Positions 10,949 through 45,274 of a stretch of 64,000 nt of DNA are shown in pieces. The notes beneath the pieces were generated by a model. The model was not told where the DNA came from. It saw nothing but the letters and a program-made list of their open reading frames with translations, and made no database searches. The number at the start of each line of letters is the position of its first letter. Within the stretch, counting starts at the first letter, position 1. Made by a program: the position numbers and the translations under genes. Location of the stretch: positions 82,213-146,212 of the forward strand of contig JBJLBO010000001.1 of assembly GCA_045568115.1 (NCBI GenBank), read 5' to 3'. This stretch comes from Candidatus Thalassarchaeaceae archaeon (GTDB lineage: Archaea; Thermoplasmatota; Poseidoniia; Poseidoniales; Thalassarchaeaceae).

Positions 10949-10971
10949 GGCTTTGGGGATACTACAGCGGA

Positions 10972-10980
10972 TTTAATTAC
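10972..10980 (-). promoter_or_regulatory. TATA-like element (TAATTAAAT on the minus strand) about 25-30 nt upstream of the 6704..10948 start codon; suggests a leaderless or short-leader archaeal transcript
   Basis: AT-rich octamer at the expected archaeal TATA distance from the ATG. The sequence alone cannot confirm it. Confidence 0.25.
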
Positions 10981-11043
10981 AGTGGTGACAAGTGTGTGGA
11001 ACACAATGATGAGCATTTGGAAATTAAAAGAAAAATAAGAAAG

Positions 11044-12267: not shown

Positions 12268-12322
12268 GTCCTCGCCGATTCGCCTGCTACTCTACTAATG
12301 AGAATTTGTGTTAATATAACTC

Positions 12323-28402: not shown

Positions 28403-29971
28403 ATGGCGAAGCTTTGGGTAATGTTCTTCACTTCTCTACTACTTGTTTCAACAATGAATTTCTATGCTGTTATTCGCGAACCCGATATGATTGAGATCGA
28501 TGAGATTCATGAATACCCAAGAGAAACTGTCAAGGTTTTAGGAGTACTAACTAGTTTCGTTGTTGACCCGTATGGTGAACAATCAGATAGGATTGATTTA
28601 CAAATCCGCGAAGTTGATGGACATTCAATGGCAGAAGTACGATGGTATGTTGATAGAGACATTGACGTGCCGCCAATAGGAACAATTGTTACAGTTGAAG
28701 GAGAAGTAACTGAGTGGAATGGGAGAATTTGGTTATCGTCCAACGGGTATGGGGCAATTCATTGTGCAGACTCAAAATGTGATGGTGTTGAATATACTGC
28801 AGTTCAAATTGTGGAAGTCGCAATGAACCCTGCAGATTATGCAAATATGTCGGTTAGAGTTGATGGGTTCCTAAGTGAAGCTCTAGAGCCTGATGTGACT
28901 TACCACTCATTGAGCCTGATGGATAATCCATCCTATGGCAACGCCGACCATTTACTGTATATGCAAATTGAAGGACGTGTGATGGAGTGGGTAGAAGCGG
29001 GAAGTCATGTAGAAATTTCTGGTTGGCTACAATATGACCAGCGATCTCTACGCTGGCGCCTTTTGGTTCAAGCTACTGCTATCGAAGTTCTTAATCAAGG
29101 GTCAACCGTTGATTTGTCTTGGGAATTAGAGCCATACTCTCTATCATATGAAGTAGGGAAATTAGTTGCAATCGAAGGTGATGTGACTAAACATAATGAT
29201 GGTTGGTGGTTATTAGGCCCCTCTCCAAATGATGTGCTTTGCTTTTTACCCTCTCCTGAAGACCTCGGAGATGACATAGAAGGAGTCAACAAAGTTTGGA
29301 CTGGGAGGCTAATGTGGTCAACTGATGAAGCCATAATTTGTCTTGATAGAGGGTTCAATGCTTCGGCCATAACACCAGTAGTTGAAGAAGGGGAAGCATC
29401 GCTTCTTGATGTCGCCCAATCACCTTTTGATCACATCAATATCCATTGCATCGATGGATGTACATTTAGTGGCTGGGTCACTGACCCTATTTCTCCTGAC
29501 TATGACAAGGGTTATGTCGGCGATGGGCCCGATTATTATTCACGCTCAACAAAACTCAGATTCCAATTGATTGGAGAACACGCTGAGTGGATTGAAGGCG
29601 GACAAGAAATTCTATTCAACGCTACAATCACTTGGTCTGAAAGTGAGGGAAGAGTCATCCTAGAAGCACGAACTTGGACTCTAGTAGGAGATGCGCCGGA
29701 ACCTAACCGTCTTAATTGGGGTGATGGTTACAACTCATGGAAATGGGATATAGGGAAGTTGGTTGTGATTAATGGAGAAGCAGCGATGGACGAGGATGGA
29801 AATCAGTGGATTGAGCGTTCGGGTTCAGATGAGCATTTGTGCCTTCTAGGAGATGGCACTGAGGCCAGCCAACAACAATCGATTGGAGAACCTATTGACT
29901 GGACTGGAAGACTTTCGACAGCAGAAGAAAGTGTTGGAAATACAATGCAATTCTGCTTAGATATTCGTTGA
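28403..29971 (+). CDS. Secreted protein (signal peptide) built from 4-5 degenerate ~90-100-aa repeats; no C-terminal anchor; function unknown
   Basis: N-terminus MAKLWVMFFTSLLLVSTMNFYA. Repeats share (V/I)GKLV(A/V)I(E/N)G(D/E)...W...C(F/L)L...WTGRL...C; for example VGKLVAIEGDVTKHNDGWWLLG...WTGRLMWS and IGKLVVINGEAAMDEDGNQWIE...WTGRLSTA. Confidence 0.5.
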   Translation: MAKLWVMFFTSLLLVSTMNFYAVIREPDMIEIDEIHEYPRETVKVLGVLTSFVVDPYGEQSDRIDLQIREVDGHSMAEVRWYVDRDIDVPPIGTIVTVEGEVTEWNGRIWLSSNGYGAIHCADSKCDGVEYTAVQIVEVAMNPADYANMSVRVDGFLSEALEPDVTYHSLSLMDNPSYGNADHLLYMQIEGRVMEWVEAGSHVEISGWLQYDQRSLRWRLLVQATAIEVLNQGSTVDLSWELEPYSLSYEVGKLVAIEGDVTKHNDGWWLLGPSPNDVLCFLPSPEDLGDDIEGVNKVWTGRLMWSTDEAIICLDRGFNASAITPVVEEGEASLLDVAQSPFDHINIHCIDGCTFSGWVTDPISPDYDKGYVGDGPDYYSRSTKLRFQLIGEHAEWIEGGQEILFNATITWSESEGRVILEARTWTLVGDAPEPNRLNWGDGYNSWKWDIGKLVVINGEAAMDEDGNQWIERSGSDEHLCLLGDGTEASQQQSIGEPIDWTGRLSTAEESVGNTMQFCLDIR

Positions 29972-29980
29972 GGTGATTCT

Positions 29981-31636
29981 GTGGACCCCTGGTTATTGGA
30001 CTTCGCTTGGCTCATCGCTTCGTTCATCTTCGGGATTTTTCTTGGCTGTCTAACTGGTTTGATTCCTGGATTCCACGTTAACAATGTTGCATTGATTGCT
30101 CTTTCACTCTCACCTGTCGCAGTAGGGATTGGGATTCCACTGGATGCCGTTGCAGGGATTATCGTAGCCTGTGGAACTGTACACACTTTCCTGAATTATA
30201 TCCCAAGCGCCTTGGTCGGTGCACCTGATGACAACATGGCTCTTGCTTTACTGCCAGGGCATAGAATGTTGATTTCAGGTCAAGCCGCGCAGGGTGTTGC
30301 TTATTCGGCACGTGGCTCACAAATGGGAATGCTGATGTCAATTCCTCTTCTAATAGTAGCTCGACTACTTTTCGGAGACAATCCAGGGCTAGGATTGTAT
30401 GAGGCTAGTCGAGACCAATTGCCTTGGCTTTTACTATTCATCTCAGTCTTCCTTATTCTAACCGAAACCACACGGCTACCTTGGCCTGAATGGTCTCAAA
30501 AGATAACTCAAAAACTAAATTTCCCTCTCAAAAAGAGAATCGAATTCAATATTCCTCTCGGCAAATTTAGCATCCGTAGGCGCTATGATTCCATTGACTT
30601 ACGCCTCGGTGCAAGCTCTAGAACCGCAGGTATTCTAGTTGCTACCTCTTATTTCCTATTAACCGGATTTTATGGCTGGGCTGTATTCGAATTGCCCGCC
30701 CGCTCACCTGTTGGAATTCCCTCAGCATCCTTACTGTTCCCAAGCCTTGCAGGTCTATTCGGTATTGCTAATCTTATTGACATATATGTTACAACTAGTG
30801 AGATTCCACCTCAAGAAAACAATTGGGATATGCCGCCTTGGAAACCACTTGCAGTACCTACTTTCCTTTCAGCGGTTGTTTCCTCGGTAATGGCTATCCT
30901 TCCTGGAATGACGGCCGCTCAGGCCACCGTAGTGGTGATGAGTGCGCGAAACTTTTGGGGCAAACTAACAGACCCAAATTACATCCCAGCTGATTTTGAA
31001 CATGGAACTCAACCTGGCTTTGAGAACATGCCTCAAATGATTGCTTTCGAAGGCATGGATGAACTAGAAACTGAAGAACGTCAACTATTCCAAGAGGCCC
31101 TTGCAGAAGCAGGTGCAAGCCCTGATCTCGATCTCGTAAACAATAACCAACAGAGGGACCTAGAAATAATTGCAATTCTCTCATCAGTCAACACAGCAGT
31201 CACAGTAATGGTTCTAGGTTTCCTATACATGGTAGGAAGGCCGCGTTCGGGTGCCGCTCTAGCTCTCAATATGATGTACCCCATAGACATCTGGAATGCT
31301 GTAGAACCTCCAGCCGATTTCATCCGATTATTAGCGATTACAGTGGCCGCTGGATTATTCGCAGTACCTGTAATGATAGAGGTTGGAAAAGGTATGCTGA
31401 AAGTGCACGAACTAGTTCCATTAAGGACACTGGTTCTCTCTGTGTGTATTTTTATCACGATTCTTGTTTACATCTCAACCGATTGGATTGGAGTCGGTAC
31501 ACTTGTGATTGGTACAATGATTGGTTTGATGGCTCCAAGAATTGGGATTAGGCGCTCTCATGGGATGGGCGTGATTCTAGTTCCAATCATGATATACACG
31601 TTTGCGCGTGAATTAGACGCCTTTGGATTTGCCTGA
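29981..31636 (+). CDS. Polytopic membrane protein, possibly TctA/DUF112-family transporter subunit
   Basis: About 12+ TM helices. LTGLIPGFHV and FLNYIPSALVGAPDDNMALALLPGHRM resemble the TctA PGxGP / LNxPGE motifs. Weak assignment. Confidence 0.35.
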   Translation: MDPWLLDFAWLIASFIFGIFLGCLTGLIPGFHVNNVALIALSLSPVAVGIGIPLDAVAGIIVACGTVHTFLNYIPSALVGAPDDNMALALLPGHRMLISGQAAQGVAYSARGSQMGMLMSIPLLIVARLLFGDNPGLGLYEASRDQLPWLLLFISVFLILTETTRLPWPEWSQKITQKLNFPLKKRIEFNIPLGKFSIRRRYDSIDLRLGASSRTAGILVATSYFLLTGFYGWAVFELPARSPVGIPSASLLFPSLAGLFGIANLIDIYVTTSEIPPQENNWDMPPWKPLAVPTFLSAVVSSVMAILPGMTAAQATVVVMSARNFWGKLTDPNYIPADFEHGTQPGFENMPQMIAFEGMDELETEERQLFQEALAEAGASPDLDLVNNNQQRDLEIIAILSSVNTAVTVMVLGFLYMVGRPRSGAALALNMMYPIDIWNAVEPPADFIRLLAITVAAGLFAVPVMIEVGKGMLKVHELVPLRTLVLSVCIFITILVYISTDWIGVGTLVIGTMIGLMAPRIGIRRSHGMGVILVPIMIYTFARELDAFGFA

Positions 31637-31707: not shown

Positions 31708-34461
31708 GTGATAACTATGGATGGCAGGCAGAAAGCAACAGCACTAATTGTAACAGGAATTATTCTTCTAGGATTGAACTATGTGGCATTGGCCGGTTTT
31801 GTTGCTGGTCAAGTCGAGGCAGGAGTTGCAGACCAAATTGCAACAGGATATGATGAAGAAAGCGATTATACCAATGATGATTGGAATAATAGCACTGAAG
31901 AAAGGGTGTATTTCGCCTATTCAATGACCAATTCTGAGGACCTGACTGAGAACTCAGCAATTGGTGCAGAGTTTGAGAAGATGGGGCCATTCATCTACGA
32001 AGTTACTACTCATCGCGAACTCTTAGATTTCGATGAATCTGCAGGCACTGTAACTTATTCTGAATACAATGTTTTCGATTGGTGCGCTAATTGTACTTGG
32101 GCTGATGATGATGGAAATGAGCACCCCTCACTTCCAGGGACTACCAATGTCACAAATGCCAATATCTTATGGAATACACAGAGAATTGCTGGTATTTCTA
32201 CTGGAATCATCTACGGAGAAATTTTCGCTAAGGCAGGATTCTCTAACCAAATGATTGCTAATGATCTTTCAAATAAGGCTCCAAGCATTTGGGCTGCTGA
32301 AGATATTTCAGACATGCAATTAGGAGCAGCATCTCAACTTGAATTAGCCGGATATGATGCTGCGACTGCTGCTGCCATGGCTCCAGCCGCAGTATTATCC
32401 GGTGCTTATGATAACTGGAATGCCTCTGCTGGAGGCGCAGGATCAATGAATCCAGATTTCTCTGCTTCTGCTGATTCAATTCTCAATACTGCAGTCGATC
32501 CATCTACTGGAATCTGTATCGCTCTATCTTGTGAGATAGGGCCAATGCTAGTAGCTGGAATGGGAGAGCCAAGTGAATCGGTAACTCCTATTCGTGCTGC
32601 TCTGCTGGGATATGGTTCGACTGACCCCGTTGAAACTACACTAATGGATTGGGCAGTGTATGGACTGGCTGGTACAACGTTCCTTGCTAATGGCGGAGGA
32701 GAAGAGCTAACTCGAGGCATGGATGACCTTCGAGATAGATTGAGGGCAGTTTCCGGTATTGATATTTCAAATTCTGATGCACTGAACAATGTGATATTTG
32801 GTGTAGATGGAGAAGAACTTGGAAATGGAATGCTTTCAGAAACTGATTACAATGGAATTCCTCTACATGGAGTGGCTTTATTCCTCCTAGGAGCTCAAAG
32901 TGATGCATTCACAACAATGGTCCAGTATGGAATTGGCTTGACTCAATTACTCGACCTATCGGATTATGCTGGCGGATGGATTGGCATGGTTGGAACACCA
33001 ATAGACTTCCCAATGATTCTTGTGGGAGGCTCAGGGACAATGAATGCAGACCAATGGTGGCAAGTTGCATTTGGTAGCGAGGAACCACTAGCTGGAGGAT
33101 ATTTCTCTATTGGACTGAATCAAGGACCTTACGAAGGAACTGTTGATCTCTCGGTTGAGAAAGTGCAAGAAATTCTGTATAATGGCCCTTGGGCACTAAC
33201 TGGAGATTTCGCTAGCGTGTTTATGTACAACGAATTAGCAGGAACTACAATGCCAATGAATGAAGACTGGACTGGATTTGTAATGGGTGGAGAAGTAGTA
33301 GATTGGGATGATACATTTGTTGCAAATGCCTATGACATTTCTGAATCTGATGCCGCGGCTCTACGTAGTTGGGTGAAGAACTTCATGTTCTCAAACGTCA
33401 TCGGGTCCCTACTTGGATTCCAATATGGTGGGACACCTTACACTACGCAATCAATGGATAACTGGCTTTATGGTTGGAGAGATTCTATCGTTGCAGATGT
33501 AGTCTACGGAGACATCTCAAACATGGAAGTAGGCTGGGTTAGCCTTGAAACAAATGAGACATATTTCGGCTCTGATAATGTAAGTACTGGTGACTTCTCG
33601 GTCTATGTAGCAAGTACTGGAACTGGAGCGCATGCAGATGATGGGACATTGGGTCAGAGATTGATGGAAGGATACATCAATTCGGATGGTAATGGATATT
33701 GTGACTTCAAGTTGAACGCAGATGGAACTGAAGCTGATGCAGACTCAGATGGCATGTACCCATGTGAAGAAGGAGAAATCTATGGACTAACAGGGCACCT
33801 TCCTTGGAGAGCACCACATCGTGAGGCGAGCACGTATGGATTACTAACTGACCATGTTGGAAACGATGTTACTGAATTGGCAGGAACCATAGGTGATATT
33901 GGAAGTGCAGATGAACCATTCAAGTACAATCTTGTTGGATATTCAATTACCGACACAGTCCCTGGTGAAATGGGTGAATTCAATGGTGTTCCAATGCGTC
34001 ACCATACCATTACTCTAGATCCGGCTGAGAACCAGATTCAAGCCAAACTGATAGGATCTGGGACCTACGTCGATGTACTCCCTGGTGCATTACCAGTATA
34101 CTTCGGTTCAGATGTTGAAATTATGGTCGAACCTATAACAAATATGCCAATGTATGGAAAGTCGATTTCAATGTTCCACTTAGACCTACGAGGAGCTGGT
34201 AACATGAATCCTGAGTTCGGAGTAGACACCCATCCTGTCTTTGAAATACATACACTTTCGGAATTACCTGAGGACTCGGCTGAGACTCTCAAATGTAGGG
34301 TGCTAAAGAATACTGACCCTATGTATTGGACTGATTTTGGTGGTGAAGGAGACTGTGCCCTTGAGGGAACAGCAGTCCTCGATTACATAACCGCTAGCCT
34401 ATACGTGGCATCGATTGCAATGATTGCATTTGGTGGAGTCCGAATGGGCACTCGAGATTGA
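31708..34461 (+). CDS. Large (917 aa) secreted protein with N-terminal signal-anchor and C-terminal TM; hypothetical surface protein
   Basis: N-terminus ALIVTGIILLGLNYVALAGFVAG. C-terminus ASLYVASIAMIAFGGVRMGTRD. Acidic, with many N-x-S/T sites. Confidence 0.5.
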   Translation: MITMDGRQKATALIVTGIILLGLNYVALAGFVAGQVEAGVADQIATGYDEESDYTNDDWNNSTEERVYFAYSMTNSEDLTENSAIGAEFEKMGPFIYEVTTHRELLDFDESAGTVTYSEYNVFDWCANCTWADDDGNEHPSLPGTTNVTNANILWNTQRIAGISTGIIYGEIFAKAGFSNQMIANDLSNKAPSIWAAEDISDMQLGAASQLELAGYDAATAAAMAPAAVLSGAYDNWNASAGGAGSMNPDFSASADSILNTAVDPSTGICIALSCEIGPMLVAGMGEPSESVTPIRAALLGYGSTDPVETTLMDWAVYGLAGTTFLANGGGEELTRGMDDLRDRLRAVSGIDISNSDALNNVIFGVDGEELGNGMLSETDYNGIPLHGVALFLLGAQSDAFTTMVQYGIGLTQLLDLSDYAGGWIGMVGTPIDFPMILVGGSGTMNADQWWQVAFGSEEPLAGGYFSIGLNQGPYEGTVDLSVEKVQEILYNGPWALTGDFASVFMYNELAGTTMPMNEDWTGFVMGGEVVDWDDTFVANAYDISESDAAALRSWVKNFMFSNVIGSLLGFQYGGTPYTTQSMDNWLYGWRDSIVADVVYGDISNMEVGWVSLETNETYFGSDNVSTGDFSVYVASTGTGAHADDGTLGQRLMEGYINSDGNGYCDFKLNADGTEADADSDGMYPCEEGEIYGLTGHLPWRAPHREASTYGLLTDHVGNDVTELAGTIGDIGSADEPFKYNLVGYSITDTVPGEMGEFNGVPMRHHTITLDPAENQIQAKLIGSGTYVDVLPGALPVYFGSDVEIMVEPITNMPMYGKSISMFHLDLRGAGNMNPEFGVDTHPVFEIHTLSELPEDSAETLKCRVLKNTDPMYWTDFGGEGDCALEGTAVLDYITASLYVASIAMIAFGGVRMGTRD

Positions 34462-34495
34462 GACTCTAAACACGAAAAATGAGACTGTACTACTT

Positions 34496-34516
34496 ACGGC
34501 CGGCTTTGCCGGCCGT
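34496..34516 (+). other. Perfect 9-bp stem / 3-nt loop hairpin (ACGGCCGGC-TTT-GCCGGCCGT) in the intergenic region between 31708..34461 and the LTD-PLD gene
   Basis: Read directly from the sequence. No T-tract follows it. Confidence 0.4.
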
Positions 34517-34546
34517 GTGCACGCTCGCGCGAAGGGTTCAACCGTA

Positions 34547-37500
34547 ATGCGCAGAGGGATTCGCATTATGAACGAGGCTACCGCTAGGTCGGCAGCCCTC
34601 ATTGGGCTGATTCTTCTTGTCAGTAGTTTAGTGTCTCCAATGACTCTCCTGGATAATATCCAAGAAAGGGCTGAATCAAGTGAACATGGGTGTGTAGTTT
34701 GCATCAACGAAGTGATGGCAGATGCTGATGGTTCAGACAAAGGAATATTTCCACAAGGCGAATGGGTCGAACTTTGGAACTCTGGAGATAGTGCTGTAAA
34801 TTTACAAGGTTGGACAATTGTAGATATTGGAGGCTGGACTCACCCCATAGATGAGAATTCCTGGGTTGAGTTTGACCAACTAATAACGCCCTATTCGATT
34901 GAGCCAGGGAACTATGCTGTGATTGCTGAAAATGACATTGGCACCCTTAGACTAAACAATGCTGGTGAAACCATCTATCTCAAAGACTCTGCAAATACAA
35001 CTGTTGATACTGTGGTAACAAGTCCTTCAAGCAATGGCATATCTAAGATAGCAGATCCAAATAACTCCAATTCAGAATGGATAGATGCTGAATCCCCATC
35101 CCCAGGACAAGTCAATGTGAATGGAGGTGGAGGCTCTGGCTCTGGAGGAGGGGGCTCGGATTGGGTAGATTCGGGAAGTTCGCCATGGGATGGTGAATAT
35201 GATATCAAGTTCACTAGAATTATGCCAGGTGAAGTTCCAGATAGAGATAATGATTGGCTAGAAATAACTAATTTCGGAGATGAAGAGGCAAATATTACCG
35301 GTTGGAGTATAGAACGTATTCGATCTACTACTCCGTGGGTCTCTAAGTTTGGTCTTTTCACGATACCAGCAGGTGAATCAGTAGTCCTATCGGAAAATCC
35401 TGCAAACCTACTAGCTGATGGAGGAATCAGTTCATTAGATGGAAATTCCGTTTTGGATAATATGCCATGGTTAGTAGATTCCGGCGCTGCTTTTCAGCTA
35501 AAGGAGCCGGCAGGAACGGTAGTTGATGCTCTTGTCTACAATGGAGGTGATGCTGAAATTGAAGGATGGACAGGAAGTGCAATTTCAGTACCAGGAGACG
35601 GGTCTCCGGGGTTGATACTAATGCGTGGAGATGGTTGTTCACCTGGTGGAGATTCTGATTCTGCTACAGAATGGGAGATTCGCTGGATTCGTATTGGAGC
35701 TTCGACTTTCTGTGATGGGGGTTTGATTGAAGCACACTCTGGGATGAGTGCTACGGCCTCATTTAGCCCAGAAACCGGGCTTGAAGATTTACTAGGTTGG
35801 ATTGCGGATGCAGATACTTCTCTTCACGTACACATGTATGAATTCCTTCACCCTGACCTAACTCATGCCTTGATTGCTGCTCTAGACAGAGATGTCAGCG
35901 TCACAATTCTTCTAGAGGAAGGGATTCTAGACGATTCTTCAACAAAAAATGATCAGCGCGGACATGCTCAATCTATTTCTGATGCTGGAGGTACTGTCTA
36001 TTGGATGGTTGATCCAACAGTAATTAGTTCTCCATATCAATTCATTCACAGTAAGGTTGCCGTCAAAGATTCTCAGAGTGTTTGGATTTCATCCGGTAAT
36101 TGGAAGGAGTCAAGTCTACCTACTGTTGATGAATCAGGAAATAGAGAATGGTCCTTATTCATAGACTCTACCGAAGTTGCAATAAAGGCACTAGAAAGGA
36201 TGGTTTTTGATGAGAATTCTAATCACCTTCATATTGACTCGCACTCTAGTTATTATGCTCCATCTGATGATTGGGAATTACCTCAACCTTCGAATACATT
36301 GCCAAATGAGTCTCCTAATCCAGATACAACAACTCCATTCCGTACCAGAATACTAACTTGTCCTGATGACTGTGTCACCGGTATTGTTTCCGAGATAAAT
36401 GAAGCAGATTCGAACATTCGGCTTTCCTTACAGTATCTTGATCTAGATTGGTATTGGGGATTCGGTGCGGAAAATCCAATTTTAGAATCTCTACATCAGG
36501 CCGCTTCAAGAGGAGTAAGAATTGAATTAATGATTAATGCATTCTATGCTGATTGGGACGATGATGTCCGTGATGCTGTAAATTTATTCAATACAGATTG
36601 GAATGCGACTCAGGGACTTGATGTTAATGCTAGATTAATGTCAACCGCCCCTGATATTTGGAAGTTGCATAACAAGGGAATGATTGTTGATGATGATACT
36701 GTACTAGTAGGCAGTATGAACTGGGGTTCAAACTCAATGCTACGTAATCGAGAGATGGGGATAATTAGCGAATCTTCTGAGTTAACTGCAGTTTTTCTCT
36801 CTAAATTTAATGACGATTGGAATCGGCTAGATGATGATACTGATTCGGATGGAGATTTACTGCCCGATTCATGGGAAGAACTGCATGGATTAGACAGGCA
36901 TAATGCTGCAGTTTTGGGTACTGCATTATCTGAACAATCATTAGATGGTGATGACGATGGATTGAATAATCTAAATGAATACTTACTTAATGGAAATCCA
37001 AATGATAACGACACTGATGACGACTGTATCCTCGATGGTGACGAAGAAGCGTTTGCTCAATCAGTAATGCGGTCGCCGGGTATCTCAATGGTTTCAGCGG
37101 ATGTCGATCAAAATGGTATTCCGGATGGTGAACAATTTGGATGTGAAAACAACACTGAAACTAATGATTCCGGAAGTGAAAATGAAAACAATACCAATGA
37201 AACTGATAATCAGGGAGGGATCGAAATTCCGATTATTAATGTTAGAGAGGACCCCTTATCCACCCCTGGTGCAAAGTTCCTGCTTGGTTTGACAGTAATT
37301 GCCGGGATCTCTGTAATTGGAGCAGGGGTGTCAATAATCCGTCGTCCAAAAACTAAAGCAGAAGAGAAACTGATTGATGATTCAGGGTATAGTTTTGATG
37401 AAGCTGATGTGCAAAAAGCAATACTATCTGGAACGCGTTTTGACGAATCATCAGAAGATACAAGGCAATGGACTGAAGGAAAGGATGATGGTAAACATGG

Positions 37501-37621
37501 TTCAATCGTTCTAGATGGATTTGGATTTGAAGAACTCAGTCGAGATGAGGTTCAGTGGAGACTAGACCAAGGAATCTCGATTGAAGAACTACGTGACGAA
37601 TTCGGTGAGGACGAGGTATGA
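34547..37621 (+). CDS. Membrane-anchored secreted enzyme: 2 lamin-tail domains (LTD) + phospholipase-D-superfamily domain with two HKD motifs + TSP3-like acidic repeats + TM + ~110-aa cytoplasmic tail. The track ORF starts at 34424; the likely start is 34547 (MRRGIRIMNEATARSAALIGLILLVSS)
   Basis: LTD-like blocks INEVMAD..GEWVELWNSGDSAVNLQGWTIVD..GNYAVI..LNNAGETIYLKD and IMPGEV..NDWLEITNFGDEEANITGWSIERI. HKD motif 1 is HSKVAVKDSQSVWISSGNWKESS (about 36047-36115). HKD motif 2 is HNKGMIVDDDTVLVGSMNWGSNS (about 36668-36736). TM LLGLTVIAGISVIGAGVSII. Confidence 0.7.
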   Translation: MRRGIRIMNEATARSAALIGLILLVSSLVSPMTLLDNIQERAESSEHGCVVCINEVMADADGSDKGIFPQGEWVELWNSGDSAVNLQGWTIVDIGGWTHPIDENSWVEFDQLITPYSIEPGNYAVIAENDIGTLRLNNAGETIYLKDSANTTVDTVVTSPSSNGISKIADPNNSNSEWIDAESPSPGQVNVNGGGGSGSGGGGSDWVDSGSSPWDGEYDIKFTRIMPGEVPDRDNDWLEITNFGDEEANITGWSIERIRSTTPWVSKFGLFTIPAGESVVLSENPANLLADGGISSLDGNSVLDNMPWLVDSGAAFQLKEPAGTVVDALVYNGGDAEIEGWTGSAISVPGDGSPGLILMRGDGCSPGGDSDSATEWEIRWIRIGASTFCDGGLIEAHSGMSATASFSPETGLEDLLGWIADADTSLHVHMYEFLHPDLTHALIAALDRDVSVTILLEEGILDDSSTKNDQRGHAQSISDAGGTVYWMVDPTVISSPYQFIHSKVAVKDSQSVWISSGNWKESSLPTVDESGNREWSLFIDSTEVAIKALERMVFDENSNHLHIDSHSSYYAPSDDWELPQPSNTLPNESPNPDTTTPFRTRILTCPDDCVTGIVSEINEADSNIRLSLQYLDLDWYWGFGAENPILESLHQAASRGVRIELMINAFYADWDDDVRDAVNLFNTDWNATQGLDVNARLMSTAPDIWKLHNKGMIVDDDTVLVGSMNWGSNSMLRNREMGIISESSELTAVFLSKFNDDWNRLDDDTDSDGDLLPDSWEELHGLDRHNAAVLGTALSEQSLDGDDDGLNNLNEYLLNGNPNDNDTDDDCILDGDEEAFAQSVMRSPGISMVSADVDQNGIPDGEQFGCENNTETNDSGSENENNTNETDNQGGIEIPIINVREDPLSTPGAKFLLGLTVIAGISVIGAGVSIIRRPKTKAEEKLIDDSGYSFDEADVQKAILSGTRFDESSEDTRQWTEGKDDGKHGSIVLDGFGFEELSRDEVQWRLDQGISIEELRDEFGEDEV

Positions 37622-38895
37622 GTAATTCCATGCAAGAAATTGTCGACGGAATAGTCACTGGTTCTTTGGATGACGCAGAAGTTCTAGAATGGCTAAGTTT
37701 TGTTTTTGAAAATGGTTTGAATAATAATGAAGTTGTCGATTTGACAAAATCAATGAGAGACTCAGGAGAAGTTCTTGAATGGCCAGAAGAGTCGGCTAAT
37801 CTTGTTGTTGACAAGCATTCTACAGGTGGAGTTGGAGACAAAGTTTCGATTGTCCTGGCCCCCGCCCTAGCCGCTTGTGGGCTCAAGGTTCCGATGATTT
37901 CTGGACGAGGACTAGGCCATACTGGAGGCACTTTGGATAAACTAGAGAGTATTCCAGGATTCAATATAGAACTCGCCTCAAAACAAATTCAAACCCAGGT
38001 TGGAAAGATAGGAATTGCAATGGTAGGACAGAGTGAAAACCTTGTTCCAGCCGACCGCAGAATGTATGCTCTAAGAGACATTAGCGGCACCATTGCTTCA
38101 ATTCCTCTAATTACTTCTTCGATCGTCTCAAAAAAAACTGCTGAAGGATTGTCTGCTCTAATTCTAGACGTCAAATACGGACGTGCGGCCTTCATGCAAG
38201 AACGAGAAGATGCTGCGGCATTAGCAAGCTCAATGGTTGATGCTGCAAATGGCATGGGCATTAGTACCACAGCCGTTCTGACCACAATGGATCAGCCCCT
38301 AGGTTGTGCTGTTGGAAATGCTTTGGAAATCGTAGAGAGTGTGGAGACCCTATGTGGCCGTGGACCTCATGATTTAGAAGAATTAGTCTGTGTTCAAGGA
38401 GGGTTACTTTTGACCTCTACAGGGATTTCAGAAAATATGGAAGAAGGGGCCTTAATGATTCATAATTCACTCAATGATGGTTCTGCATTAGAGAAGTTCA
38501 TCGCTATGGTTGATGAACAAGGAGGAGATGGCAATATTTTTGATTCTGATATGTCTATGCTTAGGGGGCTAGGTCTTCTTGATTCACAATTGAAAAACAC
38601 AGAAATATTCTCCGAAAAGAGTGGTTTTGTATCAGATATAGATGCAATGGTCATTGCTCTAGCATGTTGTGAATTAGGATCTGGACGGAAAAAACTTGGA
38701 GACTCAATAGATCATTCCGTTGGTGTAATAATCGAAGCTCAGGTTGGAGATGAATTGGAAGTAGGAGACTCGCTCCTAGTAATCTACCACCGAGAAAACC
38801 TACCTATTGGAATGTCTAAGTCACTAGAATCAGCATTTACCATTTCAGATGATTCGATTGAAGTTCTTTCGAAGGTGAGCGAAATTATCAGGTGA
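37618..38895 (+). CDS. Thymidine / pyrimidine-nucleoside phosphorylase family protein (glycosyltransferase family 3); 4-nt ATGA overlap with the upstream PLD-like gene
   Basis: Conserved DKHSTGGVGDKVS motif. Length 425 aa. Full colinearity with DeoA/Pdp. Confidence 0.8.
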   Translation: MSNSMQEIVDGIVTGSLDDAEVLEWLSFVFENGLNNNEVVDLTKSMRDSGEVLEWPEESANLVVDKHSTGGVGDKVSIVLAPALAACGLKVPMISGRGLGHTGGTLDKLESIPGFNIELASKQIQTQVGKIGIAMVGQSENLVPADRRMYALRDISGTIASIPLITSSIVSKKTAEGLSALILDVKYGRAAFMQEREDAAALASSMVDAANGMGISTTAVLTTMDQPLGCAVGNALEIVESVETLCGRGPHDLEELVCVQGGLLLTSTGISENMEEGALMIHNSLNDGSALEKFIAMVDEQGGDGNIFDSDMSMLRGLGLLDSQLKNTEIFSEKSGFVSDIDAMVIALACCELGSGRKKLGDSIDHSVGVIIEAQVGDELEVGDSLLVIYHRENLPIGMSKSLESAFTISDDSIEVLSKVSEIIR

Positions 38896-38899
38896 TAGC

Positions 38900-39964
38900 A
38901 TGAGACTGAACCATATCGATCAAATGAAAGCTATTGCAGTTCTCTGTATGGTTGAAGTTCACACAGCTGCGATTATTCCTCCTGAGGGGATCTCAGTAGG
39001 ACATCCAGCAGCCTTTGTCGCAGCAGCATTTGGAGGAATGGCTGCACCTTTATTCGTGACATTATCTGGTTGGGGAATCCATAGGGGTGCACAACGTAGA
39101 TTTGCAGATAATTTCAACAACAGTGCGTGGATTGACTGGGTGCTACCTCGTGTTATACTACTAACTATGTGCCAGTTCCTAGTCAATATTCTGTTGAATG
39201 TGGAAAGAGGTGGCAGATTTGAGTGGCAGACTCCAGGAGTCCTCACATTACTAGCAATAGCTGCACTATTGGCACCATTACTTTCGAGATTTAGTACAGC
39301 AAATCGCGGCATAATGATGACATTTTTGATGGTTACGCCACTAGCTCTTGGAAACCTAGCAGGTCCTGAATTAGGATGGTTTGCGAGAGTGGATTCAATT
39401 GGTCTTGTGGAATGGCTTGAGAGACTCATTCTGAATGGAACATATCCCGCCCTTCCATGGCTTGCATTTGTTCTCCTTGGATCTCTAATTAGTGATTTAG
39501 AAAATAATCCTAAGCAACGCGATAGCATGATAGCTCTAGGGTTTGCAATTACTACTGCTACCATTGCTTACTCGGTCTACAACAATATGGATTGGGCACT
39601 AACAGAAGGTGATGCCGTGCTTACATTCTTCCCTGCAACTATGGCTTTCATTATTGTTGCATCAACTTTCGTCCTATTAGCAGAAAAGTTACTTTCAGCA
39701 TATTCATCCACTGGAAGTGAGAAACTATCTTTCTTGGAGCCAGCAGGAAAATTGACTTTGACCATATACATCTCTCATTTCGCAGTATTAGGTATTGCAG
39801 CAATGTACATGGAAGGTGAGCCCCGTCTAGAATTAATTCCAGCCTTCTTAGTAACTATCGGACACACATTAATTTGGATTCCTTTGGCGGTGTTACACCA
39901 GAAATATATCTCTGAAATTTCCTTTGAAAATTTACTGAGAAGAATAAGTCAGTCGGCAAGATAA
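38900..39964 (+). CDS. Polytopic membrane protein, possibly DUF1624 / acyltransferase-3-like
   Basis: N-terminal RLNHIDQMKAIAVLCMVEVH resembles the R..LD..RG.A....H start of the DUF1624/OpgC-like families. About 9 TM helices. Weak. Confidence 0.3.
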   Translation: MRLNHIDQMKAIAVLCMVEVHTAAIIPPEGISVGHPAAFVAAAFGGMAAPLFVTLSGWGIHRGAQRRFADNFNNSAWIDWVLPRVILLTMCQFLVNILLNVERGGRFEWQTPGVLTLLAIAALLAPLLSRFSTANRGIMMTFLMVTPLALGNLAGPELGWFARVDSIGLVEWLERLILNGTYPALPWLAFVLLGSLISDLENNPKQRDSMIALGFAITTATIAYSVYNNMDWALTEGDAVLTFFPATMAFIIVASTFVLLAEKLLSAYSSTGSEKLSFLEPAGKLTLTIYISHFAVLGIAAMYMEGEPRLELIPAFLVTIGHTLIWIPLAVLHQKYISEISFENLLRRISQSAR

Positions 39965-42900
39965 TCCGTTGTCCAATTTAATGGTCCAAACCAAACTGAG
40001 TTTTCCTCATTCGAGGCCTGTATTCTGCCGTAATAATTGGTTCCGCAGCAGGTCAGCCCAGAAACAATTTGTGAATCATTACCAACTGTTGTACTCCCAA
40101 AACTAGTGCTACTATCCCAACCTGAAGTTTGGTTACCCATGTCAGTTGTACCGTAATAGAATGTCAGAGTTGTATTCGTTCCATTATCATAAGTCTCCCA
40201 TGATATTGTAGTAGAAGTAGCATCAGATGGATCTGGTGAAGAAAGATTACGAAGAATGGCATCGTAAACGAAATATTCTCCTCGTAATGGATCATCAACC
40301 CAAACTGGAAGATGAGAAAGAGAATCAAAAGTGTTCTGTGTAAGTGGGAAGCCCCAAGCTGAGTGATATGGGGCTAGATTGTATCCTGTGGCGTTAGATA
40401 GGTGCATAACCCAGGCATTGAACTCTTCAGTGTCATTCGTAGGCACTTGTAAAGATGGTAGTGTGTAGTAGACAGATAGTGCTTCGGTAATTGGGTCCCA
40501 CCCCCATTCCTCCTTAATCAGAATGTAAGTATCCAAAGCTATCCAAACAGACCAGTTGGAGATATTTGAACCATCATCGAAGTAAGATTCCATCCTAGTA
40601 GCCCTCTGTTCGGGATCAACAGCGCTATGGCCCTCTACACCGACCAAATCCTCCATAAGATGGACACTAGCAAAATTGCAACCAGTCTCGGTAGTCCCAG
40701 GTAGAGTTGAAGGCATCCACTGATGATTATGTCCTAATTCATGGAACATTCCCCAATCTCCGTTCTCACTCATGTGATCATAATCTACTACATCGGCTAC
40801 AGATAAATCATGAGCCATGAATGGATAACCTGAATGCATCCAACCTGCTGATATTTGGGCATCGAAAACCGCTCTCTCAACTCTTGGCCAAGGGGTGAAA
40901 CCGTAGAGTTCGTGTTCCATATCTAGAGCATCATCCCACCACTGCATTAATTGAAATGGATTATTGAGATTACGTATTTCATCGCTTGGAACGGTCAAAA
41001 TGAAATTATCGCTAACTAATTCCGCCCAAGGTGCTGGTTGATCTCTCTCAGAGTATAACCACTCAAAATCAGAGGTCACGCCCAATGTATACATAGGAGC
41101 TCTGACTGCTCCAGAAATTGTTATTTCGAATAAACCAAAGTCAGAACCTGCGGGAATCGAAGCATAGATGGGACCACCAAATGCGTTACCAACTTCTGTA
41201 GTAGTATTGTCAATCGACCATGTTCGATAAATTTTCGAGTGCCTTTTGATCACATCTTTGTGCCATAGTCCATCTGTATGTGCTCCAATCAAAATATCAA
41301 ATCCCAGTTCTGAGACTTGTTGGGTTACTGAAATAGTAATTATTTCGCCGGGTGGAGCATAGAGACCTGTTGACATCCTTAGAGCACTTCTTGCACCAGA
41401 ATAACCGAAATTACTTGGAAGGCCACTTTGAGTTCCATTGATGAAAACTATTTCCGAAACTCGAGTCGCGTCTGCTGGCACTTCACCTGGGAATTCTACA
41501 TGGCTAGGGTGTACGGGTAACTCATCAGCAGGTAGTCCAGACATCAGTGCTTCTTCCAGACGTAAAATTATGTCTGCAACAGAATCTTCACCTAGTTCAT
41601 GACCGGTGGAGCTCCAAAGTGTGGAATAGGGGATCACTGTATATCCTGTTTGGTTCACCAAGTGACGTAAAGGACTCCAAAAATCAGTATAATCAAGAGT
41701 CACGATTCCTGTGCAATGTGAAAGTGCCGAGTAGGCAGTCGCCGCATTGTCAGCATCCATATCTACACCATCTACTCGGTCTGCAAGCACGCCAGCAATG
41801 GCATTACTAATTGTTGAGTACTCATCAGGCATGTTTTGGAAATATACATCATTGTCACCCCAATCGCTGGAGACAAAAAGGCCAGTAGTTTTTGCAATCT
41901 TATTTCCGGGATAATTGTGAGCAACATCGGAATTTGAATAGGACCAATACCAAGCATGACCACCCATTATCAGACCGCCGCCGGCAAGCATGAATTCAGT
42001 CAATGCAGCATTGTCGGAATCATCATGACCATTCCAAAATTCATCAAGTAAGCAATCGATGCCACCGAGATCAGCAGGTGTAATGGAAAAGTGAACATTA
42101 TGCCCTGCGTCTCGCAATTCATCCTCAAAGCCATCAAAGCCAGCACCATAGGCTAATCCAACTTCGGCATTCTCACCGCAAACCCAATCAACTGCCCTTA
42201 GAGAGAAGGGGTGATCGGTGGAGTCAACCCAACTTTCGTGTCCATAACCCAACATCTTGCCTTTTCCAACATGTCCAGCAGATACTACAGGAATGCCACT
42301 TGACTCAAAGGCTACTGGGAATGCCCATTCACCAATAGGTAAGATTGGTGAAGGCCAGCCACCCCAATCGGCCTCAGTCATCCCCCTCAGTAAGTCACTC
42401 TGATCAGCGCGTAAATCGTGAACCACAATCCAAATATTGAGAGCCACACTACCCCCTGTGTTGGTTGCTGTAATTGTATATTCAGTCCAATCTGTACGAT
42501 ATGCAGGAGTGCCAGAAATGCTGCCATTTTCCAATAATAGCATCCCCTGAGGGAGGGGTGGCTCGATTGACCATGATTCAATATCTGGCCCATCATTTGT
42601 TACCTGAATAAATATTGACTCATTCGAAGCAAAAGCAAAATCATTTCCTTCCCAATAAATAAGATCAGGTGGTGCACTGGTAATTTTGAATCGGACTGTT
42701 GTATAGGTTGAACCACCGGTGTTGTTAGCCCAGATATTATGGGTTGACCAATCCTGAATATTTTCAGCGGTTCCTGAAATTGTTCCATTATAGACATCAA
42801 AAATGAATCCTGAAGGAAGAACTGGTTCAATTTGCCAAGAATCTGGTGTACCACCTGAATAATTGGGTTCTATCCAACCAATACTTTGGTCTATCTCTAA

Positions 42901-43953
42901 GTCAATTTCGTAAGGTGAATATTGAATATTAGATACAGCAATGTCTGAAACGCTAATCAATACCTCAACATTGATTGAACCTGCTGTGTTTGTTGCTGTA
43001 ACAAGATAAGTAGTGAGAGATTGTACAATACTTGGCGTCCCCCTAATCGAACCATCTATCTGATGAAGAGTCAGTCCATCTGGCAAGGGAGGTTCAACAG
43101 ACCAAGACACTATCTCTCCACCACTGGTGAAAGGAATCTGCTGGAAGCTACTTCCTATCCTAAGTTCAAACCGATTCGCGTCATAACTCAGCCCCATGGG
43201 CGGGTCATGCAAAATAATAATTCGAATAATAACGCTTTCTTCACCAGCCTGATTGCTAGCAGTAATGGTATGGTTAGAATCGCCTAAGTGTGAAGGAGAA
43301 CCCTCAATCGATCCATCTTGCAGCAGAATTATTCCATGAGGTAGTGAAGGGGACACACTCCAACTTTCGACATTTCCTCCACCTACAGAAGGAGGTAGAA
43401 GAGAGCAATACTTGTCTAACACACAATCAATTATAATGGAAGAATATTCAATATTAGAGGGAGGGGGTGAAATGATTTCAATATCTATTGAGGTACTTAT
43501 TGAACCCATGAAATTTGAGGCAACAATTGTGTATTTGGTATTCTGGGAAGGCGCAGTAGGAACTCCGAAAATAACACCTGTTTCTCTATCTATAACAAGA
43601 CCATTGGGTAAATTTGGATTGATGAGCCACGTATCAGGGCCATCTCCGAGAAATGATGGAGTCAGGGCCTGCATTTCATTTGCAACTTGTAATGTGATAG
43701 ATTCTTCTCCATACGTCAAATCACTGGGTTTCGTCATTTGTCGACAAGAATCACCTGTGAATATCTCGTCTATGCGACAATCATCAGCAGTTATCGAGTC
43801 ATCTACACAATCCGAATGATTAGGTTGTACGACACAATCAACAATATCTGGAAGTTCTTCCTGTTGGTCAAAAAGACCCATGCAACCCGAACTTAGCATC
43901 AAAAATGTAAGGAGAATTGCACAGTTGGCCTTAGTGCTCATAGTTCCGACCAC
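39949..43953 (-). CDS. Giant (1334 aa) putative lipoprotein: 5 putative-Ig (He_PIG-like) domains followed by an HEXXH zinc-metallopeptidase domain, possibly M60/enhancin-like
   Basis: N-terminus AILLTFLMLSSGCMG is lipobox-like. Repeats LPNGLVIDRETGVIFGVPT..YTIVASN, LPHGIILLQDGSIEGSPS..ITASNQAG, LPDGLTLHQIDGSIRGTPS..VTATNTAG and others. Metal site MFHELGHNHQW with a downstream Glu (HLMED). Confidence 0.5.
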   Translation of the reverse strand: MVGTMSTKANCAILLTFLMLSSGCMGLFDQQEELPDIVDCVVQPNHSDCVDDSITADDCRIDEIFTGDSCRQMTKPSDLTYGEESITLQVANEMQALTPSFLGDGPDTWLINPNLPNGLVIDRETGVIFGVPTAPSQNTKYTIVASNFMGSISTSIDIEIISPPPSNIEYSSIIIDCVLDKYCSLLPPSVGGGNVESWSVSPSLPHGIILLQDGSIEGSPSHLGDSNHTITASNQAGEESVIIRIIILHDPPMGLSYDANRFELRIGSSFQQIPFTSGGEIVSWSVEPPLPDGLTLHQIDGSIRGTPSIVQSLTTYLVTATNTAGSINVEVLISVSDIAVSNIQYSPYEIDLEIDQSIGWIEPNYSGGTPDSWQIEPVLPSGFIFDVYNGTISGTAENIQDWSTHNIWANNTGGSTYTTVRFKITSAPPDLIYWEGNDFAFASNESIFIQVTNDGPDIESWSIEPPLPQGMLLLENGSISGTPAYRTDWTEYTITATNTGGSVALNIWIVVHDLRADQSDLLRGMTEADWGGWPSPILPIGEWAFPVAFESSGIPVVSAGHVGKGKMLGYGHESWVDSTDHPFSLRAVDWVCGENAEVGLAYGAGFDGFEDELRDAGHNVHFSITPADLGGIDCLLDEFWNGHDDSDNAALTEFMLAGGGLIMGGHAWYWSYSNSDVAHNYPGNKIAKTTGLFVSSDWGDNDVYFQNMPDEYSTISNAIAGVLADRVDGVDMDADNAATAYSALSHCTGIVTLDYTDFWSPLRHLVNQTGYTVIPYSTLWSSTGHELGEDSVADIILRLEEALMSGLPADELPVHPSHVEFPGEVPADATRVSEIVFINGTQSGLPSNFGYSGARSALRMSTGLYAPPGEIITISVTQQVSELGFDILIGAHTDGLWHKDVIKRHSKIYRTWSIDNTTTEVGNAFGGPIYASIPAGSDFGLFEITISGAVRAPMYTLGVTSDFEWLYSERDQPAPWAELVSDNFILTVPSDEIRNLNNPFQLMQWWDDALDMEHELYGFTPWPRVERAVFDAQISAGWMHSGYPFMAHDLSVADVVDYDHMSENGDWGMFHELGHNHQWMPSTLPGTTETGCNFASVHLMEDLVGVEGHSAVDPEQRATRMESYFDDGSNISNWSVWIALDTYILIKEEWGWDPITEALSVYYTLPSLQVPTNDTEEFNAWVMHLSNATGYNLAPYHSAWGFPLTQNTFDSLSHLPVWVDDPLRGEYFVYDAILRNLSSPDPSDATSTTISWETYDNGTNTTLTFYYGTTDMGNQTSGWDSSTSFGSTTVGNDSQIVSGLTCCGTNYYGRIQASNEENSVWFGPLNWTTDYLAD

Positions 43954-43992: not shown

Positions 43993-45274
43993 TTACAGAC
44001 TAGGGTATGCAGGCCCCTCTTCAAGACAATAATGAACAATTTGGAATTGTGACTTAAACTCTGCAACATCAGCACGCACACTTGCAGAATCCTCTTCTGC
44101 AATCAATGAACGGGCAAAGAAATGGGCAACATCTTGCATCTCATCTACACCCATACCAACTCTAGTCAACTCAGGCACACCAAGCCGCAAACCACTAGGT
44201 CCTGACATAGCCTTGGTGTCTCCTGGAAGCATATTCATGTTAGTAATAATTCCACAGTCCTCAAGAATTTGGGCTGCTCGCATTCCGGCACCTGAATCAG
44301 GACCTCCATGACGAGTTAGCACCTGATGACTTTCTGTGAAGCCACGTTCCTCGGCGAGTACATCAAATCCTTCTGCAGATAATGCTGTACCCAATGCCTT
44401 AGCATTCTCCACAATGTCACGAGCATAATCAACACCGTGGGCTTCAAACTCTGCTAGTGCAACAGCCTTTCCAGCCACATGATGAAGATGGTATGATGAA
44501 CAAGTCCCTGGGAATATCGAATTGTTTAGTTTCTTGTGGAAGGGCCTCGTCTTCCGAATCAGAAAGAACGAATCCACCCTGGGGTCCTGGGAAGGTTTTG
44601 TGGCTTGAACCAGTCATCACATCCGCACCCTCGTGTAGAGGGTCTTGGAATTGACCACCGGCAATTAGACCTAGAACATGCGCCCCGTCATACATAACTT
44701 TGGCACCTACCTCGTGAGCTGCATCAGATAGTTCTCGCAAGGGTGTAGGGAATAGGAATACCGATTGGCCAAAAAGAGCCAATTGAGGCTTGGTTTCTCT
44801 TATCAATTTACAGGCGGCATCAACATCAGGTTCCATTCGCTCTTCATCCCATGGATAAGTTACGAGATCAAGTCCTCGGAGCCCTACAGCACCCATTCGT
44901 GCGTGAGAAATATGTCCTCCATCTGCAGTTGAAACTGCTGTAATTGTGTCACCAGGTTTAACCAGTGCTTTCAGAGCACCAATATTTGATACGGTTCCCG
45001 ATGTTGACTGAATGTTAGCAAATCTGCAGTTGAATACACGCCTAGCAGATTCGATACCAATGCTCTCAATCGTATCAAAATCATCACAACCTTGGTAGTA
45101 GCGTTTCCCAGGCAGGCCTTCTGCATATCTGCCATGAAGGTCCGAATTAACAGCTTTCGCGACGAGAGGAGATAGTATGTTTTCGCTGGCTATCATTGGT
45201 AAAGAATCTCGATAGTGGCGGCCCGAAGCCTCGACCGCTTCTTGAACTGCAGTAGCTTGTTCATGAGGATTCAT
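43993..45274 (-). pseudogene. glyA: Serine hydroxymethyltransferase split into two overlapping ORFs (44444..45274 and 43993..44577) by a single-nucleotide frameshift near 44538-44545
   Basis: The upstream ORF carries the SHMT N-terminus through SSHKTFPGPQGGFVLSDSEDEAL. The other frame continues PFHKKLNNSIFPGTCSSYHLHHVAGKAVAL (= [28 protein letters not shown]). The switch falls in a GGAAGGG run (plus strand). Confidence 0.85.

Follow-up and report, generated by a model that had tools for sequence, protein, structure and literature searches.

Gene content of the locus

This analysis concerns a 64,000-nucleotide stretch of archaeal chromosome (contig JBJLBO010000001.1, positions 82,213 to 146,212; hereafter, the window) from a marine group II (MGII) archaeon of the Thalassarchaeaceae. 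Within it lies the gene for a membrane-anchored ectoenzyme, here called LTD-PLD, that combines two lamin-tail domains (LTDs) with a phospholipase D (PLD)-superfamily domain carrying two HKD motifs. Marker genes of the window include those for TFIIB, CDP-archaeol synthase, purD, purE, guaA-C and glycine cleavage, together with three tRNAs. All close homologues of LTD-PLD come from MGII (Poseidoniales, mostly Thalassarchaeaceae), and one Thalassarchaeaceae metagenome-assembled genome has a locus (L010) 96% identical to that of the window. The gene stands in the following co-directional cluster:

28403-29971, plus strand: membrane-anchored tandem OB-fold protein, 522 amino acids, first gene of the cluster
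29981-31636, plus strand: TctA-family polytopic permease, 551 amino acids, 9 nt after the OB gene
31708-34461, plus strand: CD36-like protein, 917 amino acids, between the TctA and PLD genes
34568-37621, plus strand: LTD-LTD-PLD ectoenzyme with two HKD motifs, 1017 amino acids from the ATG at 34568 (reading frame open from 34424)
37618-38895, plus strand: thymidine/pyrimidine-nucleoside phosphorylase (TP), 425 amino acids
38900-39964, plus strand: acyltransferase-3/HGSNAT-like polytopic membrane protein, 354 amino acids

A preliminary description of the last three genes, made from the DNA letters, had given open reading frames at 34424-37621, 37618-38895 and 38900-39964, and reading the sequence confirmed all of them. 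It also confirmed the translational coupling claimed for the first two, since the PLD stop and the TP start overlap as ATGA at 37618-37621. The third gene follows closely, its ATG at 38900 lying 4 nt after the TP stop (TGA, 38893-38895), and encodes a polytopic protein with at least seven transmembrane segments by hydropathy. The frame of the PLD gene is indeed open from 34424, but the TTG at that position is unlikely to be its start. This codon lies inside the upstream gene, which ends at 34461; in L010 translation from the counterpart of the ATG at 34547 would meet an in-frame TGA; and the homologues start at the position of 34568 (MNEATARS). For these reasons the true start is most likely the ATG at 34568, which gives 1017 residues. 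Residue numbers quoted below for the signal/anchor segment and the transmembrane helix are counted from 34547 (1024 amino acids).

Architecture and topology of LTD-PLD

From the N-terminus, LTD-PLD consists of a signal/anchor segment, LTD1, LTD2, a two-HKD domain of about 390 residues, an acidic stalk, a transmembrane helix and a tail. On the plus strand these parts map as follows:

34694-35671: Pfam LTD region, with LTD1 at approximately 34694-35017 and LTD2 at approximately 35192-35671
35669-36856: two-HKD PLD-superfamily catalytic domain, with motif 1 at 36047-36100 and motif 2 at 36668-36721
36842-37618: acidic stalk (about 36842-37246), transmembrane helix (about 37283-37339) and tail (about 37340-37618)

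Pfam detected LTD (PF00932) in two stretches (E 2.1e-32) and PLDc_2 (PF13091) in two stretches (E 8e-39; 132.9 bits, cut-off 27). The HKD motifs (HSKVAVKD-x6-SSGN and HNKGMIVD-x6-GSMN) are both intact, and their H, K, D and N are invariant among 43 homologues. Motif 1 carries S at the canonical G position, so that the window protein has SS/GS rather than GG/GS motifs. The catalytic region was modelled with AlphaFold2 at a pLDDT of 90.1 and a pTM of 0.91. Motifs, curated models and fold all place the protein in the PLD (HKD) superfamily.

The LTD-PLD part is outward-facing and C-terminally anchored, because hydropathy detects an N-terminal signal/anchor (residues 17-35) and a single C-terminal transmembrane helix (residues 913-931) followed by RRPKTK. 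The anchored ectoenzyme with two LTDs and a two-HKD domain, as first described, is thus borne out by Pfam and hydropathy. The stalk of about 135 residues is very acidic and contains TSP3-like DTDxDxxxD repeats of the calcium-binding type, which are conserved across homologues. The 89-residue cytoplasmic tail had no Pfam match; a motif in it (LDGFGF..SRDEVQ..LD.G.S.EEL) is conserved across the PLD family, and this conservation hints at an intracellular partner or a signalling role for the ectoenzyme.

Affinities of the HKD domain

NCBIfam models scored the HKD domain at 66 bits for DrmC, 35-42 for NucT, 19.5 for ClsB and 18.2 for Cls, all below the family cut-offs. The equivalog models for lipid synthases remained far from theirs (ClsB, 19.5 bits against 281; bacterial cardiolipin synthase, 18.2 against 290). 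PADLOC retrieved LTD-PLD with the models for DrmC, MkoB/C and DpdK only, which are PLD-type defence nucleases. A family profile run against PDB sequences found Nuc (5e-15), Zucchini/MitoPLD (1.4e-11), NucT (6e-11), the Serratia plymuthica enzyme SpPLD (1e-7) and PLD2 (0.095). With the family hidden Markov model (HMM), Nuc of an IncN plasmid scored 66.6 bits despite its single HKD, and the Escherichia coli K-12 proteins scored 45.3 (ClsC), 44.0 (ClsA), 35.4 (ClsB) and 19.3 (PssA). When the catalytic domain by itself served as the query, a word-indexed search gave fragments for the most part.

By profile scores, as distinct from a phylogeny, the HKD domain is therefore nearest to the nuclease-type members. 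Grouping with cardiolipin or phosphatidylserine synthases, which the preliminary description had said would tell against its reading, was not seen, because the NCBIfam scores for DrmC (66) and NucT (42) exceed those for ClsB (19.5) and Cls (18), and Nuc (57-67) scores above ClsA/B/C (35-45) and PssA (19).

Foldseek with the catalytic model returned 142 PDB matches at E ≤ 0.001, and the 50 matches listed were all PLD-superfamily structures. The best were SpPLD (7e0m, E 5e-22) and the PLD3/PLD4 5'-exonucleases (E about 1e-21), the latter with a TM-score of 0.66-0.69 normalised on both lengths. Lipid PLDs followed at E 1e-19 to 1e-20; they are much larger, and only 0.45-0.5 of their own length was covered (TM-score on target length). 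SpPLD itself has nuclease-like loops and GS motifs, and its authors leave substrate selectivity open (PMC8004604). Fold alone does not set the substrate of the HKD domain.

Comparison with known enzymes

The best sequence-profile matches of LTD-PLD are Nuc (IncN plasmid/Salmonella), NucT (Helicobacter) and Zucchini/MitoPLD, with identities of about 25-30% over short stretches only. They share HxKx4Dx6(G/S)SxN motifs and a compact core without the insertions of lipid PLDs, and Nuc and NucT are exported as well. They are, however, proteins of about 155-200 residues with one HKD per chain that dimerise, whereas LTD-PLD departs from the Nuc-type homodimer by fusing both HKD halves in one anchored, multidomain chain of 1017 residues. 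Like DrmC, these three are metal-independent nucleases.

The lysosomal 5' exonucleases PLD3 and PLD4 resemble LTD-PLD in being two-HKD single chains of the same size, membrane-anchored and with a non-cytoplasmic catalytic domain. They differ in their type II N-terminal anchors, their eukaryotic origin and their lack of LTDs, and no significant sequence match to them was found in the PDB sequence and profile searches. SpPLD shares the compact two-HKD form and nuclease-like loops and, besides its top Foldseek rank, gave a weak sequence match; it is a soluble bacterial protein of 391 residues described as a phospholipase D, 17% identical to LTD-PLD. ClsA/B/C and PssA belong to the same superfamily and likewise carry two HKD motifs per chain, whereas the Cls enzymes work on lipids of their own cell, at the cytoplasmic face of the membrane, and have neither LTDs nor a stalk nor an exported catalytic domain.

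In overall plan, LTD-PLD resembles ExeM (Shewanella), Xds (Vibrio) and the LTD-nuclease of Izemoplasmatales, which combine an N-terminal LTD, an extracellular membrane-associated phosphoesterase and OB-fold nucleic-acid-binding modules. LTDs accompany the extracellular nucleases ExeM and that of the Izemoplasmatales DNA-degradation loci (PMC6085458, PMC8289736), and in the latter the LTD-nuclease gene sits beside transporters and nucleoside-catabolic genes (PMC6085458, PMC8289736). LTD-PLD shares with this type the LTDs and an exported or anchored phosphoesterase, but has an HKD domain where the bacterial enzymes have a metal-dependent EEP domain. Their OB folds are part of the same polypeptide, whereas those of MGII are encoded in the separate upstream gene at 28403-29971.

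In E. coli K-12 (loci L094 and L096), clsB adjoins the Bax1-I genes ybhL/ybhM and the EEP-domain gene ybhP, and clsC adjoins opgC, which we take to be a member of the acyltransferase-3 family. These neighbours echo the Bax-inhibitor-1 and acyltransferase-3 neighbours of the MGII PLD gene, probably by coincidence.

Downstream genes

The gene that overlaps the PLD stop encodes a protein with the Pfam domains Glycos_transf_3 and PYNP_C. It exceeded the cut-offs of NF004490 (450 bits against 269) and TIGR02644 (449 against 409). Among PDB sequences it matched human TP at 2e-97 and PyNP at 6e-95 (TP/PyNP range 1e-87 to 2e-97), and archaeal AMP phosphorylase at 1.5e-35; the model for the latter enzyme was rejected at 201 bits against a cut-off of 535. 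Judged by these matches, the protein is a thymidine or pyrimidine-nucleoside phosphorylase of the bacterial/eukaryotic type, as originally assigned.

The third gene had been put forward as a possible transporter, and this assignment is dropped. Its product belongs instead with Acyl_transf_3 (E 1.1e-17, 64.6 bits against 31), HGSNAT_cat (1.3e-11, 44.9 against 22) and DUF418 (1.1e-5). No significant match to a transporter family was found in Pfam or NCBIfam, the nearest being a sub-threshold hit to Rnf-Nqr (E 0.0094, 16.4 bits against 23.8), and NCBIfam and PDB returned no match of any kind. Converging on this gene with a 16-nt overlap, a minus-strand gene (39949-43953) encodes a 1334-residue M60 (enhancin-like) peptidase with He_PIG Ig repeats. 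Most MGII loci have this gene in a syntenic position, and its product is another large surface hydrolase of the same neighbourhood.

Upstream genes

The preliminary description proposed a scavenging operon of three genes. The idea of a scavenging cluster is partly supported, but that description missed the OB protein, the TctA permease and the CD36-like protein upstream. The OB protein has an N-terminal transmembrane helix by hydropathy and no Pfam family above threshold. Weak matches to the nucleic-acid-binding OB family PF01336 occur in 28 of 33 members of its own family (best E 3.7e-6), which appears to be MGII-specific. Its AlphaFold2 model (pLDDT 80) comprises a helix followed by about five beta-barrel modules, and the top Foldseek matches are all tandem-OB DNA binders: the HIN domain of p204 bound to dsDNA (1.9e-9), CST, Teb1, POT1, RPA and SSB.

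The second of these upstream genes encodes a TctA homologue (Pfam E 5.1e-42) with at least eight transmembrane segments, and it is the cluster's best candidate for a transporter, ahead of the acyltransferase-3 gene. The third, CD36-like protein matched Pfam CD36 at E 1.4e-9 (37.4 bits against 26.5), within residues 58-128 only and over 72 of the 463 profile positions, and it had no match among PDB sequences. A transmembrane helix at each end encloses a large ectodomain, which is the two-helix hairpin topology of CD36.

Conservation of the cluster

Gene order was compared in 86 distinct MGII loci, grouped by PLD identity to the window, with counts taken over informative loci:

PLD identity at least 56%: TP adjacent in 58/58; acyltransferase in 50/50; OB, TctA and CD36-like genes upstream in 37/37
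PLD identity 49-54%: TP in 0/6; acyltransferase in 6/6, directly after PLD; OB and TctA lacking in 6/6
PLD identity at most 45% (long forms with five or six LTDs): TP adjacent in 9/13 and behind insertions in 4/13; acyltransferase in 7/13; OB and TctA in 8/8, with no CD36-like gene

Taken together, TP lies downstream of PLD in 71 of 77 informative MGII loci, an acyltransferase gene follows PLD or TP in 63 of 69, and, once the 49-54% clade is set aside, OB and TctA precede PLD in each of the 45 informative loci. Intergenic spacing is tight throughout, from overlaps to about 45 nt, also where other genes intervene. In the 49-54% clade the PLD stop overlaps the acyltransferase start, and in the most divergent loci (the group at or below 45%) TctA ends 18-35 nt before PLD. 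The CD36-like gene is a lineage-specific insertion between TctA and PLD, confined to the group of at least 56% identity.

Insertions between PLD and TP in the most divergent group consist of a Bax-inhibitor-1 family membrane protein (BaxI) and/or a 2-oxoglutarate (2OG)-Fe(II) oxygenase. The oxygenase genes are placed as follows:

L009, 14913-16630: 2OG-Fe(II) oxygenase, preceded by BaxI
L090, 15025-16692: 2OG-Fe(II) oxygenase, preceded by BaxI
L091, 14914-16632: 2OG-Fe(II) oxygenase, preceded by BaxI
L008, 14825-15781: 2OG-Fe(II) oxygenase, not preceded by BaxI

The inserted oxygenase was considered as a thymine-7-hydroxylase. Thymine dioxygenase (3e-27) is one of its better characterised matches among PDB sequences but is not distinctive, as unrelated oxygenases match equally well and the best matches are uncharacterised proteins.

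Variation among the relatives of LTD-PLD is confined to the segment between LTD1 and the last LTD. Some insert three or four further LTDs, giving five or six in total, and in others the two LTDs are separated by a PhoX alkaline phosphatase domain (PF05787, E 3.6e-29); the latter form occurs in a sister lineage with an otherwise identical cluster. An example is P0020 (L005/L006, 10001-14581), of about 1525 residues, and about 25 further clusters are alike. Such a protein is predicted to be a fusion of a diesterase and a monoesterase.

Across Thermoplasmatota and other Euryarchaeota, proteins with LTDs and two HKD motifs make up a much wider, uncharacterised family, with 3304 clusters at E ≤ 1e-3. 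LTDs are present in 48 of 60 sampled relatives at about 30% identity, and at least 354 species-level genomes carry a gene of the MGII enzyme family. The downstream genes, which the preliminary description expected to be conserved neighbours if its reading was right, are so within MGII (TP 71/77, acyltransferase 63/69) and are not in three of the four loci outside it. The cluster is kept beyond MGII only as one PLD-TctA pair. In this case, a distant archaeal contig (L099, 34% identity, 7672-12615), PLD is followed after 34 nt by a TctA gene of the orthologous type, the reverse of the MGII order. The recurrence suggests that PLD and TctA form a functional pair and is the best hint of this that is independent of synteny; it points to TctA, and not to the acyltransferase-3 gene, as the transporter. 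A 794-residue protein upstream of PLD in L099 was considered as a relative of the OB array and found to be unrelated.

A structured leader upstream of the PLD gene

34497-34570, plus strand: leader of the PLD gene, comprising an 8-bp GC hairpin (34497-34515), the core CGCGAAGGGTTCAACC (34528-34543) and a 9-bp hairpin (34543-34551 paired with 34562-34570)

The invariant core CGCGAAGGGTTCAACC has a single occurrence in each of 43 MGII loci and in the window, in every case 25-45 nt before the ATG of the PLD gene, and is absent elsewhere in 1.64 Mb. In the 8-bp hairpin, two pairs are doubly compensated and none is broken among 25 sequences. The 9-bp hairpin contains the start codon within its 3' arm, and in L010 an A-U pair is replaced by G-C. 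The leader folds as RNA with z = -3.1 and has no Rfam match. A scan for promoters and terminators of the bacterial type detected no enrichment, its models being bacterial and not applicable to the archaeal host. Lineages with the long form of the enzyme (identity at most 45%) lack the leader, and their PLD gene abuts TctA directly. The leader may represent either a new cis-regulatory RNA or an operator; as its structure would sequester the start codon, it suggests dedicated translational control of the PLD enzyme.

Proposed function and alternatives

We tentatively propose, as the best-supported explanation though at somewhat less than an even chance, that this MGII surface cluster scavenges extracellular nucleic acids or other phosphodiesters, most likely dissolved DNA or RNA. 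The proposal draws on architecture, topology, family affinities and gene linkage, from which we infer every step of substrate and flux. The OB array and the LTDs would hold the polymer at the cell surface, where the HKD domain would cut phosphodiester bonds through a phosphohistidine intermediate and without metal. In sister lineages the fused PhoX phosphatase would strip the terminal phosphate and release Pi. The products would be imported, possibly via TctA, and the phosphorylase would convert pyrimidine (deoxy)nucleosides to the base and (deoxy)ribose-1-phosphate, to be salvaged or used as carbon; the acyltransferase-3 protein would be an accessory and not the transporter. The fuller claim, that MGII carry a dedicated and previously unrecognised nucleic-acid apparatus with OB/LTD capture, an HKD nuclease (in some cases PhoX-fused), a TctA importer, phosphorolysis and control by a novel leader, is possible but doubtful.

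Several observations weigh against scavenging. Acidic residues far outnumber basic ones in the catalytic domain (64 D/E against 24 K/R, pI 4.3), which is odd for a binder of polyanions, although the whole proteome is also acidic. All sequence relationships are remote (at most 30% identity), and the fold search separates nucleases (1e-21) from lipid PLDs (1e-19) indecisively. A recognised nucleoside transporter is absent from the cluster, TP sits among genes of nucleotide and one-carbon metabolism, and a gene of the CD36-like, lipid-handling family lies directly upstream of PLD in the lineage of the window. The 49-54% clade keeps PLD and the acyltransferase without TP, OB or TctA nearby, and three of the four LTD-PLD loci examined outside MGII have none of these neighbours. 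In addition, MGII loci share synteny over about 40 kb, with CarS and purD on one flank of the cluster and guaA, purE, gcvP and gcvT on its other flank, and because of this the conservation of neighbours is weaker evidence than the counts suggest.

The CD36-family match, with its fitting two-helix topology, is the starting point for an alternative in which exogenous lipids are harvested. LTD-PLD would then be a true phospholipase D or a head-group phosphodiesterase acting on membranes, vesicles or detritus, the CD36-like protein would serve in uptake and the phosphorylase would be unrelated. Lipid and fatty-acid catabolism is reported to be richly represented in MGII genomes, the fold is common to lipid PLDs, and the top Foldseek match (7e0m, E 5e-22) is annotated as a phospholipase D. 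Sequence profiles nevertheless favour nuclease-type members over lipid PLDs and Cls, and the domain is compact, without the extra elements of lipid PLDs (TM-score of 0.45-0.5 on target length). The CD36-like gene, moreover, is restricted to one sub-lineage and absent from forms of at most 45% identity, where TctA abuts PLD, and the tandem-OB partner, the PhoX fusion and the coupling to TP fit nucleic acids better. We regard lipid harvesting as unlikely, although a real chance remains with it.

The shared flanks raise a second alternative of a similarly low probability, in which the genes form no functional unit and regional MGII synteny has merely kept a generic surface phosphodiesterase beside housekeeping pyrimidine salvage. 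The same flanking genes (CarS and purD; guaA, purE, gcvP and gcvT) are found in the window and in loci with 33-38% PLD identity, in some lineages unrelated genes (BaxI, the 2OG oxygenase) separate PLD from TP, the PLD gene carries a leader of its own, and the cluster is missing from three of the four non-MGII loci. Such a view has to accommodate co-directionality, overlaps and short gaps that persist in deeply diverged lineages, and a PLD-TctA adjacency that recurs, with the genes in another order, in a distant lineage.

Remodelling of the cell's own envelope is more improbable than either. Here the PLD enzyme would cut or transfer groups joined by phosphodiester bonds to surface glycans, glycoproteins or archaeal lipid head groups, together with the acyltransferase-3 protein as an O-acyltransferase working across the membrane. 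PLD and the acyltransferase are linked in all three MGII sub-groups (63/69 loci). In the TP-less clade this is the one linkage that survives, and there the stop of PLD overlaps the start of the acyltransferase gene. The enzyme is also tethered to its own membrane and has a conserved cytoplasmic tail. Yet the acyltransferase is absent from six of the 13 most divergent loci, the catalytic domain is carried off the membrane on a long stalk with up to six LTDs, the literature searched held no precedent, and the OB array, the PhoX fusion and TP would be left unexplained.

An anti-phage defence nuclease akin to DrmC of DISARM, suggested by the best NCBIfam and PADLOC matches, is effectively refuted by topology and by the missing partner genes, DrmA/B/(D/E/MI): the match reaches 66.4 bits where 133 are required, the catalytic domain lies outside the cell, no neighbour matches a defence model, and this is a conserved chromosomal core gene in 354 species genomes.

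Novelty and significance

MGII LTD-PLD proteins, their PhoX-fused form and this cluster are not described in the literature searched, and databases hold only automatic names for them. Bacterial LTD-tethered extracellular nucleases and HKD nucleases are already known; new to the literature searched are the archaeal anchored LTD-HKD enzyme, the PhoX-fused form and the cluster.

MGII archaea have not been cultured, yet they rank among the most abundant archaea in surface ocean waters, and their substrates have been inferred only from genomes. If nucleic-acid scavenging is their function, these genes would add dissolved nucleic acids or phosphodiesters to the MGII diet; on the fuller claim, significant amounts of dissolved DNA/RNA and organic phosphorus would have their sink in MGII. 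A metal-independent extracellular diesterase of the HKD type, including its PhoX-fused form, would also become a player in marine organic-phosphorus cycling. The locus offers several experimental handles, namely the soluble ectodomain, the tandem-OB protein, an orphan archaeal TctA, now with a class of candidate substrates, and the conserved leader RNA.

Other features of the window

Two further observations concern genes on the minus strand outside the cluster. A giant open reading frame of 3177 residues (12323-21856) carries, close to its N-terminus, an STT3/AglB oligosaccharyltransferase domain (E 2.7e-20); the other roughly 2500 residues are for the most part without annotation. The serine hydroxymethyltransferase gene (43993-45274) is split into two overlapping reading frames, 44444-45274 covering profile positions 7-246 and 43993-44577 covering positions 261-398. 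As the relatives carry one gene of 426-441 residues, the split represents a frameshift, either an assembly error or a pseudogene.

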